A stretch of DNA of 64,000 bases from an uncultured Nitrospiraceae bacterium (GTDB lineage Bacteria > Nitrospirota > Nitrospiria > Nitrospirales > Nitrospiraceae): positions 800,001-864,000 of the forward strand of contig CAVSTP010000004.1 of assembly GCA_963730935.1 (NCBI GenBank), written 5' to 3'. The position numbers were made by a program. Shown piece by piece: positions 1 to 39,000 of the stretch (within the stretch, counting starts at the first letter, position 1; every line of letters starts with the position of its first letter).

Positions 1-3000
1 GCTCAAGTGGCTACAAGACCCCACGCTGATCACGTCATACCTTGGAGCTACATCCTAGAAGACAGGGCATGGAACCTTGTATTGAGCTGCGACAGGTGCA
101 ACCGCAACAAATGGTTTTACCTTCCTCCTGAGAAGCCATTCCTCGACAAGCTTATCCAGCGTAACCAACTCCTAATCCAAGGTAATCTCCAGTCCTTTCC
201 TAATGGGACAAAGATAAAGAGAGACTTCGCCGAATGGGACGCCCCCCGCTTGGACAAGCATATCCGGGAGTCCTGGCATAAGGCACAAGCAGACGGATTC
301 AGAATTTGGCAGCCTTCTTTGGATAATAATGGGGGAAAGAAAACGGGATATTATGAATTTCGCGGCATGTGGCGGAGGTTCTTAGAACAGGAATCATGCT
401 TCCTTTGAAAAAGAAACGAGCTTCCGCTCTCTTTGAGTCGTTCGGAAAGATTCTGGATGAGCTAAGACGTAGAGATATACTACGCAGTAGTAATAGCCCA
501 ATCTCTGACTTTGCAGAGCTGCTTGTTTGCCGTGCCCTAAAGCTTGAGCGTGAGCCGCCGTCCACCAAGGGATTTGATGCGAAAGATCGCCGAGGCCGGC
601 GGTACGAGATCAAAGGCCGTCGCCTGACTCCCTGGAACAACTCCCGCCAGCTTAGTGCTATTCGTGATATAGAAGGGGAACATTTCCAATTCCTGGCTGT
701 TGTGCTCTTCGAGAATGACTTCTCGATTTGCCGTGCATGTGTTGTACCGGCAACTCTTGTCACGACCTCCGCGCGATATAGGAAAAATGTTAATGCGTGG
801 ATACTCCATGCAAACGATAAGCTTTTCCAACATACAGATGTTAGGGACATCACAAATGAAGTGCGACGGGCCTGGCGCAATACCCGCTAACTCAGACTTC
901 GTGGCGTAGCGGGCCGGCTCGTTCCTCGCCTCCGCCGTCCCCTCACCGCTGATCGCACCTCACACCGCGATGGACCTGCGCATCCGTAAAAAGTAGAATG
1001 CACCAACAATGGCTAAAGCAAGACCAAGAAGTCCTTCTCTTGCCAATCGCCGACTGATTCGCGGGAAAACGGGTGGACGATGTCATGTGTGTGGTGGACC
1101 ACTCGGTAGAAACTGGCACGCTGATCATGTAAGACCGCATGCAATAGGAGGCACCTCTTTAATTGATAACTACCTCCCATGCTGTGGAATCTGTAATCGG
1201 GCACGATGGATGTCTGGATCGAAAGTGATCCGGCGACTGTTTATGTACGGAGTCGTAGCTCGAAAAGAAATACGAGCAGGGACTACGCTTGGTAAAATGT
1301 TTTTGAAGCAAGTGAAGAAACACGTTCTTGGCAAGAGACTGCGGAATAAGATGTGAATCGATCCCGGCAGCCGGCGCGTTCCTCGCCTCCCCGTCCGCCC
1401 CTCTCACCGCTCATCGCACCTCATACCGCGATAGACCCCGCCCACGTGAAAACGTAGAATGTCCTGGTTTCTTTGACCCCGGTTGGCGCCACCCGAAAGT
1501 GCATGGCTTGAAACCAGAAGTACGGCCTGAGTTGAATTGACCCGCTGACTCTTCATAAGCAGGTCGTATCATCTCAAGAAGTCATATAGCCTTGGTGGGC
1601 GCTTCCACATGAACCTTTCGCTGGCCTCTCCTGACTCACTGGGCAGAGACCGTGAGTTTCAGAGACGCTCAAAGAAGGAGGAATCGCCACGTGGATTCTA
1701 TTCGTCATGCGCTGAAAGAGATGCAGACTAAACATACTAATCCCTGAGTCTGCGCCGTATGAAAGGAGAGAGCCATGAGACCAAGTACTCGCGCAGTCAT
1801 CGTGATCGCGGGCGCACTTCTGCTTGGTGTCGGATTGGCGGGTGCTCAATCCGCGCCAGTTGCACCCCCTGTTAGAAGTCCTGCGCAAGACGACCAGCCC
1901 GCGATCACTGAACAGCCAGCAGAGTCTCGTCCAACGACGACGCCGGAACGGGAAACGGCGGCACCGGACGAGGGCCGGATCGAAGATCGAGGCGTTCCAG
2001 TCAAGCCGCTGCTCGGCGTTCCGCCCACGGCCACCGCACCTCTCAAGCTTGTGGGGCCCACAGAGAATCTGACGAAGGTTATCAATACGCTCACGCACAA
2101 ACACAAGAGTCTTACAACCGTGATCACCACCGCACCGGGCCTGCAACTCACGCAACCGGTCGAGATTAGCATCCTCTTTATTTCGCCGTGGGGGACCAAT
2201 ACGCGCCTCACGCAACCCTATCAAAATAAATTCGGGAATCGTTTTGTCTACAACGATCCCGAAGGTGAAGGCAAACTGCGGCACCTGCGCATGGATATCT
2301 GGCTGACCGAGCCCAAGCCGGATGGCGGGCACTATAGCTACTCCATGACCTGGCAGGCGGATCTTGATCCGTTGTACGACATCACGGTCAGCCCGTTGAT
2401 GTTTACATTGGTGTCCGATTGCGACACTGTTCCTCTTGTGGGAACCCCGCTCGGCAATAGTGAAATCCGATTTCATTGGGCGGATCCAGCCATTTCTGAT
2501 GGCTGGTACAACTTGTCCTTCAACACCGTGAAAGGCAGGCCTGTGTCGATCAACCAGTTCGCCTGGTCGCGCACAGAATTGAGCGCGAGCGCCGTTGCCT
2601 CCATGAACCTCCATTTACCGGCCATTCTCTGGAAGGAACATGATCCCCATCTGGGGGTCGAATATGGAGGCTTACCAACGTTTTCCAAGGTGCCGCTGCC
2701 GGCCACAACCCAGGACTTCCAGTTCGCTTTATTCCCAGGTCAGCTATATCCCGGCCCGGAAGAAATTCGGGGCAATACATGCATCGCCCGACTCCAATAC
2801 AGGATTACGCGCATCCTCCGCACGTACTCCACTCTGTAAGGGGAATCGAAAGGAAGAATCCAGATATGAAAGCCAACTAACAAGAAAAGGGGAGAGGCTA
2901 CTTTGCTAAGTGCTTGAAGATTTGGGAACCGGTGCAGGAACCATTTTGCGGCGCGTGGCGGGCCGTGTGATATTACGCTGCCGCGTCATCAACCCCGGCA

Positions 3001-36000: not shown

Positions 36001-39000
36001 GGCTGTTCAGCGGTGATAGCCAGCCGCGCGCGTTCAAACTGACGCACAGCGCCGTCTCGCCGAACGGGCTCATCGCCGCAACTTACGTGCGCGATAGCGA
36101 GGTGAAGACAGCCACCGTCGGCGGCGCGTTCGAGCCCTCCACCGCCGAGCTGGCGCGCCGCGAGAAGCTGAAGCGTGAAGATTAGGGCGTGAGGCTCGAA
36201 ATGCGGTAGCGCATGTCCGTAGTAGAAAAGTGGACATTCTAATTTTTAGAAACATACTCATCAAACAACCATCTCGCGGCAGCGGGCCGGCTCCTTGCCT
36301 TCCGCAATGCAGTCAAAGTGCTTGCCGAGAGGCTTCCTGAGTTTCGATCACAACGCCGATCAAGCGAGCATCTCCGGGCATGTCATCAAGCACTACGCTG
36401 CTATTCGCGTCACGACTGACTCTGATATGCCATACGTCATTGTTCGCTGCAGGCGCTGGCTCGGTCACGTTGATGACGAGCGCAGTATTGAGGTGCTTGG
36501 TCGATTTCTTCGCCTGATCTGAGGCGCAGTGATGGGCAGTTCGCCTGAGAGAAGCGCCACCCTCACGCTTGAGATCAGTCGCAGTAACGAGTTCTACACA
36601 CCATCCTACTGAACCGATCGTGGACGCCGCTTGCCACATGATCGTGACATTGAGCTTCCCCCTAAATTGTCCAGGCAATGTGAACGGAACAATCGCGCTT
36701 TGAACCTCGTCGGCATCGAAGCTAAGTACCCCTTTCCTCACATCATTGCGTACCACGCAAGCAGGGGTTGGGGAGTTACCATCAGCAAGCGTCCATTCCG
36801 TCTTGGCGGTGGAACCGTGGCAATGCGCAGCAGAGAATGAGCTTTCCTCTTTACGAGGGCTCTTCACTTCAGCTCCCGAATCTAAGACGCTGAGCAGTGT
36901 GACTGACAGCACTATCAATCCAACGACGGACGCTAGGGGCTTCATGACAAGCTTCCCTCTTCGTCGAGGCAACGACCGGAAGTCTACGCTCAACGCAATC
37001 CCAGAGCAACCATTGCAGTCTTGAGGAAAGGAAAGAGGACATTCTCCTCCCTCAGCTTGTCGTTAGCTCCTTGAAGATCCGCTCCGCTTCCGGTTTATAT
37101 TTTCGCTCCCACGTATATCGGTAATGGGGATACTCGGCATGAACCACAGCTTCCACTTGCTTTCTTGCATCCTCGATTCTCCCCTGCTTCCTGTAGAGCT
37201 TGGCAAGAAGGATCCTTGCGTTAGCGTAATTCCCGTCGGCCGCAATAGCCCGTTCGAAATACTCTTGAGCTTTCTTTTCACTGCCGCCCAGGAACCGAGG
37301 GAGCTCCAGCAACATCCCACCCATCATCTGTAGGGATTGCGCATGCTTGGGGTTGATTTCGATCGCGCGCGTTACACAGCTCTCAGCTCATTGATCACGA
37401 GCGAAAGATACACCGCTTAACAACCATCTTGCGGCGCGTGCGGACCGGCTTGTTCCTCGCCTCCCTGCCCTCACCGCTCATCGCACCTCACACCGCGGTA
37501 GACCCCGCCGACGTGAAAATGTAGAATGGCCTGGCGTTTTTTTGCAGGGCCATCCCCTCATGAACGAACTATTCGAACGCTATCCGTTTCTTCGCGTGCT
37601 TTCAAAGTGCACGCACCTTGACTATTCCTCCTTGATGGTGCCACAAGGTCCACTGTCCGCATCACTGGGACAATTCGACAGCATTCATCGCTGTCATTCC
37701 ATTGTGTATCAGACCTGTAAGGATGCTCGCATCCCGCTTCGCGCGCAGTTGTGCCGCTACCTTCAACCTGCGTTCCTGAAGGCGGAGGCTGTACAGGCGC
37801 TCCAAGACCTCGAATCGTCGTTGCCCGACGACACAGCCATTGTCGCGTACGCAGCACCACTGCAAATCAGAGTAAAGACCTAGAGGGTGGGGATGTCGAC
37901 TAGGCGGCGCGTGGCGGGCTCCTTTCCTCTCCTCTTCATTCCTCTCACCTGCATAGATCAAACCTCTGAGAAGAAGTAGAATACACTCCCTTTCTGCCTC
38001 GCAACGGATCATTCACGGAGGGCACCATGCTGGACTGCGTGACGTGCAAGTGGATTAAATGGAGTGCGAGCATCCCCGTTGTCTTGCTCTTCGGTGCCGC
38101 TGGCTTCCTAGTCCTCGCGCAGGTCGCTGTGGCTCAGGATAATGCGCCCGCTGTTCTCCTCGACCTCTACCTGGCGACCTGGTCGTATATTTTGGCCGTC
38201 GCCGGCGTAGCACTTCTCACAGGCTGGTGGCTGTGGAAATCGATCCACATGCGGACTGCACATGCGCTTCGGCCATGTTGAAGGAATAAGAAAAGGTGTC
38301 AGGAACCGTTCCGGCGCGTGCCGGGCCCCGTTTCCTCGATTTAGAACGTGGTAGGCGTGTCCACCGACATGTCCTCGCGGGATCCGGGGCATGGCCGCGC
38401 ACAGTACGCGAACCAGCATTTTCGGTGCAAGAAAAAGTAGCCTGTCCCCTTTAAAAACTATTGCTCATAATTCTCGACGACCTGCGGCGGGCGAACTTGT
38501 GCGTCGTCAGGGTCGAGCCCGACATCGCGAAGGGCACGTCGCTGGCGCAAGAGGTCCCAGCACTGATCCAGTTCGACTTGGACTTGCGCGAGCCGCTTAA
38601 GATCGGCTTTGGGAAGTTTCCCTTGCTGGTACAATCGCTGTTCCTCTGCGACAAGGCGCTGAATATAATTGAGGACCGGCTGATCCCTGACTCGATTCTC
38701 CACGAGAGCCTCCTCTCACGCGGATATGATCGAAACGGCACGATTTTATGTTACGCCCCACCGAAATTGGGGTCAACCGAAGCTGACCAACATGATGTTC
38801 CCAGTGAACAGAAAGACGGGGCCATCTGCATTTCGCGGCGCGTGGTACTCAGATGCACTCGGCCTATCCCAGCCGGGGTTTGCGGGATTTCAAAACTTTG
38901 GCTAGAGTAGCTAGGATGAGTAGGAGTATGGCGTCTTTTTCACTCGTGAAAACTATCGCAGTGCTTTTTGCCCTGTTCACCCTGACGTCATGCATCGATG

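Follow-up and report, generated by a model that had tools for sequence, protein, structure and literature searches.

A chromosomal gene-cassette array in a Nitrospiraceae bacterium, very probably exchanged at a 19-bp core and perhaps built with TIRYT transposon ends

Co-oriented repeats separate unrelated genes in the chromosome of an uncultured Nitrospiraceae bacterium, which raises the question of whether these repeats bound gene cassettes and, if so, how such cassettes are made and moved. The window analysed here is the whole 64,000-nt stretch, whose position 1 is contig position C4:800,001. The genome-wide survey's note had described an integron-like array of 130-nt repeats, and its counts were reproduced: the array contains 15 exact copies of CACCGCGATAG, and an nhmmer model from 15 copies gave 28 genome matches at E<1e-4, 25 of them in C4:798875-837535, all on the plus strand. 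Two of the three outside matches were confirmed (C4:536283-536410 and 738058), but the third was at C3:850270, not C4:535738. The extent of 39 kb proved too small. Matches (score ≥14) to a position weight matrix of the 19-bp core TTTCGCGGCGCGTGGCGGG, partly trained on copies of this array, numbered 54 on the plus strand and none on the minus strand (chance expectation ~0.24 per strand), from C4:798894 to C4:902053, a span of ~103 kb. The array starts just past a conserved B12/radical-SAM gene cluster that ends near C4:795400, and it fills the window (1..64000, plus strand) and extends past both of its edges. The window holds 43 of the core matches (358..58274, plus strand), which start at 358, 2944, 3422, 4695, 5230, 6526, 7300, 8399, 10943, 11939, 12550, 13230, 13386, 19800, 20720, 21821, 22571, 23625, 24737, 28515, 28672, 29831, 37900, 38831, 39279, 39971, 41029, 42440, 43180, 43472, 43879, 45645, 46971, 49550, 50380, 50881, 51584, 52042, 53982, 55505, 57184, 57732 and 58256. 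The match at 43180 lies inside an SDR gene and is probably a chance coding match. Additional decayed junctions were located near 895, 1352, 18251, 26735, 29165, 30286 and 37426.

The core is the 5' block of the long repeat. In the type copy (7283..7430, plus strand), the core at 7300 is followed by a B block, a C block and an inverted R4-like transposon end with TAGAAT, and another R4-type end lies upstream, at 7264. The units between cores have a median length of about 1 kb, and their cargo in this genome comprises 40 plus-strand and 24 minus-strand genes, a rough count because the ORF caller misses low-GC genes. As the note had listed, Pfam assigned the cargo to methyltransferases, SDRs, CARDB, DUF4136, DUF1264, DUF6130 and a weak AsmA/YhdP relative. 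The latter, of 1363 aa, is encoded at 14004-18095 on the minus strand in the largest early unit (13386..18251, plus strand). A unit with DUF6130 and NmrA-like genes (26735..28515, plus strand) was found in 13 other stretches with different neighbours. Two plus-strand units are gene-less, at 13230..13386 (156 nt) and 28515-28672 (157 nt). Of the 57 units in this genome, 53 were also found elsewhere, with 270 matches in the same orientation to the core and 4 in the opposite one, not all of these matches being independent. Across the junction set, 242 cores lay on one strand and none on the other.

Comparison with relatives showed that shared gene units occur in another order and that the change of neighbour falls inside the core. 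In three genera of Nitrospiraceae (g1, g21 and g14), arrays are found at one shared locus, and a pyruvate-kinase cassette is 88-90% identical between genera, compared to 74.7% for the anchor. Among 548 junctions, 74 pairs (43 families) had only the upstream flank in common, 79 pairs (39 families) only the downstream flank and 30 pairs both; these pairs are not independent of one another, and some of the loci represent the same stretch of DNA. In core coordinates, upstream-linked variants faded at about -3, and downstream-linked variants began at +14/+16. Rearranged pairs had core variants at +3..+16 in common in 5 of 118 and 3 of 135 cases, and pairs matching on both flanks did so in 17 of 28, against a random level of 0.02. 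Shared blocks (≥300 nt, ≥85%) numbered 81; 24 of them began ≤25 nt from a core in each of the two stretches compared, and the end of 19 fell at -5..+35 of a core; the core-edge windows used for this block-end test make up 2-6% of the arrays. The note had doubted the repeats as boundaries on account of the cassette at C4:827156-828482, a doubt that is resolved by the closer relative G006, with which the shared block spans 826854-828524, its end falling within the core at 828515. The long 3' block was absent from both copies in 45 of the 74 upstream-only pairs and present in both in just 5, and R2 was present in both copies in just 10 of the 79 downstream-only pairs. The working unit is hence the 19-bp core instead of the 130-nt repeat.

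The note had reported no empty site, and such sites were found. We identified 11 empty/filled triads, 2 of them redundant, and 3 pairs involve this genome; the cleanest triad showed an exact 21-nt direct repeat between unrelated flanks. The filled site at 43472..46971 (plus strand) holds 3499 nt with two inner cores that are missing from G047, where the junction has one core. Conversely, the site at 58256..58274 (plus strand) is empty, and G047 has 1895 nt extra between two cores. The site at 10943..13386 (plus strand; 2443 nt, three inner cores) is filled relative to metagenome locus L197, which is weaker evidence, as the flank downstream consists of repeat sequence. Searches of soil and sediment contigs with window positions 1-20000 (four runs, shares 0.27-0.30) revealed one contig that connects 11940 to 12552 core to core, not counted as an empty site since its far side is repeat sequence, and no excised circle. 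Taken together with the neighbour switches inside the core and the retained orientation, these sites support the note's reading of the repeats as boundaries of an IntI-independent cassette array, and the units are very probably cassettes exchanged at the core. Growth from a leader was rejected, as neither a leader site shared beyond the anchor gene's promoter region (7 genomes) nor a mismatch or age gradient (10 arrays) was found. CRISPR-like target duplication at insertion found no support either, as neighbouring repeats showed no excess sharing of variants (27/842 adjacent vs 353/13856 non-adjacent), a comparison that is uninformative if perfect cores alone are targets.

A candidate enzyme, overlooked in the note, is encoded inside the array. 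The gene at 9462..10139 (minus strand) encodes a TIRYT/RAYT-like HUH (Y1) transposase of 225 aa with the motifs H69-F70-H71 and Y129-x-x-x-NP and a PF01797 match. Its NF047646 score of 72.9 bits is under the cut-off of 80, and its C-terminal extension gave no Pfam HTH match at E≤0.001. It is the sole Y1 gene, and the sole intact TIRYT, of this genome. The gene is flanked by a left terminal inverted repeat (TIR) of the R1 family (9446..9470, plus strand; GGGGACAG motif at 9453) and a right one (10152..10180, minus strand), after which its outer end is repeated in a short tandem copy. GGGGWSAS, an exact R1 match, is present on both flanks, and the gene fits the TIRtron/TIRYT description. A stump of the unit (4981..5162, plus strand) retains the left TIR and the 3' end of the gene with 97% identity, fused to another R1 end and the core at 5230, and a stump of a related unit (38327..38452, minus strand) retains 5' codons and the right TIR. 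This genome has no TIRYT DNA outside the array.

Transposon ends also adjoin the cores more generally. A TIR lies ≤80 nt upstream of 126 of 273 cores, compared to 54 of 2000 control positions, and the other 147 cores have no recognisable TIR upstream. R2 is located at -14/-13 of the core in 79 cases and R4 at -14 in 14. Four TIR families flank genuine TIRYT genes in inverted orientation, and five abut one and the same core. An R1 end that includes the final nucleotides of the TIRYT gene was seen 19 times, preceded by 17 unrelated sequences. TIRYT genes, whole or broken, are present in 13 array stretches, and no other recombinase homologues were detected in 1.88 Mb, one island excepted. Several large arrays have no intact TIRYT, and no Y1 genes were found in G047, G048, G006, G020 and G023 (76-98% complete) or in G136, G163, G202, G210 and G222, all with arrays or cores. 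A core was located within about 1.5 kb of 1 of 30 further TIRYT loci and 0 of 30 g21 Y1 loci, and none of 30 loci examined showed a TIRYT whose own end bears the core. In genus g14, TIRYT genes are common (8 and 7 of 77) and cores are rare (6 of 52). When intact TIRYT units move, as in L035 vs L037, they take their outer ends with them; in cassettes, by contrast, the switch occurs at the inner end. We found no functional study of TIRYT transposases and no published arrays of TIRYT ends in the literature searched.

On balance, we lean towards a chromosomal gene-cassette platform in which TIRYT ends capture genes and the cassettes are then exchanged at the core. A cassette would run from core to next core, with an optional spacer containing an inverted transposon end, the cargo and a transposon end leading into the next core. 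In the capture step, suggested by the scars in the sequence, the TIRYT transposase would join the outer end of a TIR to new DNA, by which an end module (TIR plus core) becomes fused to the ends of unrelated genes. In the exchange step, whose outcome is seen in the rearranged junctions, units are proposed to be excised and inserted between directly repeated cores, which would keep the orientation and allow reordering and cross-genus transfer. The switch point lies at about -2 to +14 and needs a near-perfect core with almost no further shared sequence. Short-homology recombination may be the foremost candidate for the catalyst of this step, with TIRYT in trans and another host factor such as XerC/D as less favoured candidates of equal standing. 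The related enzyme TnpA-REP cleaves to either side of its recognition site, some distance away from it, and then joins the strands again (PMC3333891). It is tentatively conceivable that the platform is a HUH-transposase-based counterpart of the integron, in which several families of TIRYT enzymes, working in trans and in many cases since lost from the locus, both build cassettes by end fusion and recombine single-stranded cassette circles at the core. If so, Nitrospiraceae would share a cross-genus cassette pool, and a first function of TIRYT would be known.

The same junctions could have arisen more passively and without a dedicated recombinase, if miniature derivatives of TIRYT accumulated in an island that tolerates them. 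Recombination over short homologies (by RecA, strand annealing or slippage) would then delete and reinsert DNA between the best-kept 19-21 bp, and the core would stay uniform through the loss of variants from the shared pool. The lack of a recombinase tied to the arrays, and of a leader or gradient, agrees with this scenario, as do TIR clusters of mixed orientation without cores at C4:1464-1507 kb. However, exchange requires little besides the core, about 20 bp is a short substrate for RecA, the core is kept from genus to genus with a different block following it, and the strand bias is complete. We consider the scenario unlikely, albeit the likeliest of the alternatives. Instead of TIRYT, a site-specific recombinase of the host, either XerC/D or one not yet recognised, might read the core, with the TIRs as mere scars of cassette birth. 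Core variants appear to block mobility, arrays persist without TIRYT, and XerC- and XerD-like proteins are the sole tyrosine recombinases here that have close relatives in the three genomes compared (XerC in G020, G047 and G136, XerD in G020 and G136); a dedicated tyrosine recombinase common to the arrays was rejected, as only these XerC/D-like genes were shared. The core, however, is a GC-rich, asymmetric direct repeat, as opposed to 28-bp dif sites of 11-6-11 structure (PMC6449649), a comparison left incomplete because the genome's own dif was not found. No IS110, reverse transcriptase or serine recombinase was found in or near the array; the genome has four PF00239 matches, the nearest at C4:990754, without homologues in other arrays. 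We regard this explanation as quite improbable.

An array of diverged attC sites that has lost its integron integrase (CALIN) would account for the co-oriented, gene-sized units and the gene-less ones, and IntI above cut-off was found in 3 of 33 genus genomes. In G046 and G005, however, it is distant from the array or on another contig, and TIGR02249 gave no match at E≤1e-40 in this genome (G000), in accordance with the note; no PF00589 match lies between C4:737k and 983k. The note's view that the recombination sites are not attC was likewise upheld, as an attC end pair lay near 2 of 548 junctions compared to 6 in shuffles. The inverted arms that it had described are indeed complementary, but 10 folds (5 copies, both strands) gave no improvement over shuffled sequences (z -0.97 to +2.26), and the window gave no Rfam match at gathering score. 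The primary sequence of the site is conserved and the cargo points in both directions, and the attC reading is largely refuted and very improbable. Even less credit is due to a duplicated promoter/operator module of a regulon, which is refuted as the whole explanation. The outward promoter that the note had placed in each repeat is present, as TAGACC-N16-18-TAGAAT, in 10 of 22 long copies only, with its -10 box within an inverted TIRYT repeat. A plus-strand ORF follows 9 of the 10 promoter copies and 5 of the 12 without (Fisher p=0.03), a rough test given the crude gene calls. Nevertheless, most junctions bear the core alone, the cargo is unrelated and shuffled, and the empty and filled sites would be left unexplained. 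Of the cassette-array reading in the note, the boundaries are supported; the folded site, the 130-nt unit and the promoter in every copy are not.

Cassette-array behaviour is itself already known, but the site and array described here fail every known family tested. Sedentary chromosomal integrons and CALINs (PMC2727003, PMC8618304) are similarly long, co-oriented arrays of gene-sized and gene-less units at a fixed locus, with cassettes reordered and common to several species. Integrons have IntI, attI and attC, whereas no IntI, attC end pair, significant fold, attI or leader, or gradient was found here, and what marks the site is a constant primary sequence of 19 bp, with cargo in both directions. 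TIRtrons/TIRYT (Di Nocera 2013, PMC3733652; TnpA-Y1 subclass 2.1, Quentin 2018, PMC6006769) share the HUH/Y1 gene between inverted GGGGWSAS-type repeats and the clusters of free TIR copies; the consulted passages of these two papers describe no cargo, co-oriented arrays or separate conserved core, as opposed to the five TIR families at one core here, and the C-terminal HTH of subclass 2.1 was not matched in our protein. In REPtrons and BIMEs, the HUH enzyme TnpA-REP cuts both flanks of its site and rejoins them, and it has been proposed to sequester neighbouring genes (PMC3333891). Here, by contrast, there is no GTAG hairpin nor any significant hairpin, and the copies, rather than being dispersed, bound whole genes at one locus on one strand, apart from about 12 stray matches. 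The pdif modules of Acinetobacter (XerC/D; PMC6449649) are also IntI-independent gene modules between short sites, but these are 28-bp dif-like sites with inverted flanks, mostly plasmid-borne, compared to 19-bp chromosomal direct repeats. SCC/SCCmec cassettes (Ccr serine recombinases; PMC11470126) resemble the units in being tandem at one chromosomal locus and excised singly or together between att sites; they are, however, Ccr-dependent and 17-48 kb long.

The array would represent an integron-sized cassette platform in Nitrospira-type bacteria of soil and sediment data that is invisible to IntI/attC tools. About 60 accessory genes per genome become readable between cores and traceable across genera. 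TIRYT transposases gain a testable role, and cargo fused to transposon ends may display the scars of cassette birth. To our knowledge, this birth step is still open for integrons. Were the enzyme found, a small protein acting on a 19-bp site would be interesting as a tool; if the passive scenario holds, the array would be a variant of repeat-driven shuffling.

Exact core matches were absent from viral contigs, and three non-Nitrospirota matches in a genome scan were solitary and attributed to chance. The stray matches outside the array in this genome had mixed orientations relative to GC skew, and a replication-strand rule for them was rejected. In this genome, the long repeats were concentrated in the first 39 kb.

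The ~130-nt repeat of the genome-wide survey's note is present in the window as described there, with the exact word again in 15 copies, and 28 nhmmer matches were again obtained, 25 of them within C4:798875-837535 and all on the plus strand. The array is real, but its reported extent was too small, as the 5' block of the repeat continues well beyond it. This block contains the invariant part of the repeat, a 19-bp core. A position-weight model, whose training set was 237 copies taken from 11 stretches (the present one included), gave 54 core matches (score ≥14) in C4:798894-902053, all on the plus strand; the chance expectation was ~0.24 per strand, and the remainder of the genome held 12. 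In the relative genome G048 all 88 core matches were forward, and in the loci L157-L238 having at least two cores, 242 cores lay on one strand and none on the other.

We are highly confident that this is a real cassette array, larger than first reported, and that exchange at the 19-bp core has been demonstrated. Among the units (core-to-next-core segments) longer than 400 nt, 53 of 57 recurred in other arrays, with the same orientation in 270 matches and the opposite in four, although some loci repeat identical DNA. Of 81 blocks common to five close stretches, 24 began and 19 ended at a core in both partners. Across 548 junctions, 74 pairs were alike in the upstream flank only and 79 in the downstream flank only. 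Linkage of core variants to the upstream flank faded at about -3, and linkage to the downstream flank was seen from +14 to +16; a few upstream-linked variants were shared at +3, +4, +5 and +11, a hint of a switch somewhere late in the core. Core variants were inherited in 17 of 28 pairs keeping both flanks, as opposed to 5 of 118 and 3 of 135 across a rearrangement, and we infer that near-perfect cores alone would move and then decay.

No empty site had been seen earlier. Eleven empty/filled triads were found, of which two are redundant and some are less firm because one side is repeat sequence. The present genome takes part in three: the filled site at window 43472-46971 is missing in G047, the filled site at 10943-13386 is missing in locus L197, and at the empty site at 58256 G047 carries 1895 nt. 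The cleanest triad, from two G048 contigs, showed an exact 21-nt direct repeat with unrelated flanks. The pyruvate-kinase cassette was 88-90% identical between genera, compared with 74.7% for the anchor region (the conserved B12/radical-SAM cluster before the array), which points to spread by horizontal exchange. The pyruvate kinase gene moves as a cassette at L003:8431-9891 (C4:892431-893891), and was found at 88-92% identity in six or more genomes from three genera. An Xre/MbcA/ParS antitoxin gene (44360-44794) lies within the filled site at 43472-46971; toxin-antitoxin cassettes stabilise integron arrays.

TIRYT-type terminal inverted repeats (TIRs) were found within 80 nt upstream of 126 of 273 cores, versus 54 of 2000 random positions. 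Families R2 and R4 share a register 14 nt before the core, and in genus g21 a fifth family, R5, precedes the cores. Four families were seen flanking real Y1 genes in inverted orientation, and R5 on one side only of a broken gene. The published GGGGWSAS motif (PMC3733652) was exact in R1 and R5 and had one mismatch in the other families. Optional blocks 3' of the core vary by lineage; an inverted R4-like end closed such blocks in 50 of 387 cases and an inverted R1 sometimes did so, so that the long repeat is a miniature element bounded by a transposon end on either side. As for the outward promoter once assigned to every repeat, both boxes were kept in 10 of 22 long copies, but the -10 box lies inside the right transposon end. 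A plus-strand ORF followed nine of these ten, and a promoter role is possible. The proposed folded site was not borne out, the DNA folds of repeat copies being not significant. Minimal units of 44 and 95 nt (G192:C281:32396-32440; L087:37-132) consist of a core and little beyond one TIR.

The Y1 gene at window 9462-10139, the sole one of the genome, has intact HUH and tyrosine motifs and is flanked by inverted R1 ends; the only structural relative of its protein was E. coli TnpA-REP (4ER8, E 2e-4). Two stumps of the gene also lie inside the array, and the rest of the genome has none. Close homologues (71%) occupy the same locus in G001 and G046, and a Y1 gene of another family is located between cores in G176 and L092. 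As two copies in G041 show, intact TIRYT units end a few bases beyond the GGGG motif, on its outer side. The R1 end together with the final bases of the TIRYT gene occurred 19 times (two of these in the present genome, at the gene itself and at its stump) behind 17 unrelated sequences joined at the same outer point; in most cases an R2-like end and then a core came next. Judging from these sequence junctions, new DNA would be captured at the outer ends of the TIRs, probably by TIRYT. For TIRYT such chemistry is plausible because TnpA-REP cleaves at a distance on both sides of its site and rejoins the strands; sequestration of neighbouring genes was also proposed for it (PMC3333891). The outer ends of TIRs frequently show a tandem duplication of 13-20 nt (window 10170-10200; G001:3481970-3482000 and 3483600-3483630; G009:3732090 and 3738620), possibly the scar of a nick at the GGGGWSAG-like motif at which several end. 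Behind the TIR, the last TIRYT codons read on the reverse strand (RGRPRK-like) are similar to the core's first half (L300:1480-1540 and other TIRYT 3' ends), and the core may, speculatively, descend from an old TIRYT gene end. Elsewhere, R1 and R3 TIRs are clustered in both orientations at C4:1464302-1506537 (part in L006), with neither cores nor a TIRYT gene; some pairs face inward around 3.8-4.5 kb.

The exchange enzyme is unproven, with TIRYT as a candidate. No Y1 gene was matched in ten genomes having arrays or cores (76-99% complete), most TIRYT loci were without a nearby core, TIRYT was common where cores were rare, and the exchange switch lies on the inner side of the TIR, all of which argues against this candidate. 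No IntI was found in the genome, and neither IS110 nor a reverse transcriptase was found; the array encodes no serine recombinase, and 1.88 Mb of array DNA, one island excepted, held no recombinase homologues. Among the three genomes tested, the tyrosine recombinases shared were XerC/D-like genes only. The main rival to enzymatic exchange at the core is a passive route through short homology; a homology of ~20 bp is short for RecA, and most exchanging junctions had no long block and no TIR family in common. A leader, a gradient and an excess of variant sharing between neighbouring repeats were looked for, and none was found.

The integron comparison used the attC end consensus. In its working the array resembles that of an integron, but it does not qualify as one (PMC2727003, PMC8618304). 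It also falls outside pdif modules, SCC and the REPtron (PMC6449649, PMC11470126 and PMC3333891, respectively). The Y1 gene, and it alone, fits the TIRtron class (PMC6006769, PMC3733652); some of the present TIR families could be named in the TIR lists of the latter (Figure 9, additional files 4-5). In the literature covered, which excluded most subscription journals, no account of arrays of this kind was found.

In the genome collection, the exact core occurred in 98 stretches. The host is Nitrospira-like, because 77 of the 80 loci listed were titled Nitrospira, Nitrospiraceae or Nitrospirota; the other three were solitary chance matches. Cores were present in 20 of 24 same-genus genomes and in none of 16 from other families. 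At one mismatch, 71 of 201 family genomes (the present one included, and the unpublished G053, used for this count only) had a core, with 12 of 19 in genus g1, 39 of 51 in g21, 6 of 52 in g14 and 3 of 31 in g30. The same radical-SAM cluster adjoins the start of the array in G001, G005, G009, G046, G047 and G048, and also in G192 and G218 (g21) and G177 (g14).

The array start (window 1-1356; L001:18986-19912) holds a HIT-domain gene, an unnamed gene and an HNH gene, and C4:798948-800322 has an 83% copy in G048, preceding the first core there. Between anchor and first core, a Thoeris ThsB-like TIR-domain gene and a caspase-domain gene (L001:15816-17155; C4:795816-797155) form a possible anti-phage module. 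The anchor radical-SAM genes are split into overlapping frames in the present assembly (L001:11255-15499), possibly through homopolymer errors, and pseudogene calls need care. In G009 (891883-892272; L009), the anchor radical-SAM gene has its 5' end and promoter region in a second copy, and small toxin-antitoxin-like genes lie between the two; this is a separate route of insertion at the array start. Another small motif family, made up of a 21-nt hairpin-like word and a 13-nt word, occurs repeatedly and in one orientation in islands close to tRNA genes and integrase remnants (C4:532-537k in L004, C4:273.5k, C3:20.8-22.1k, C1:178.7k, C4:426.5k and C4:738k). Several stray cores adjoin it, and these islands could carry cassettes between cells.
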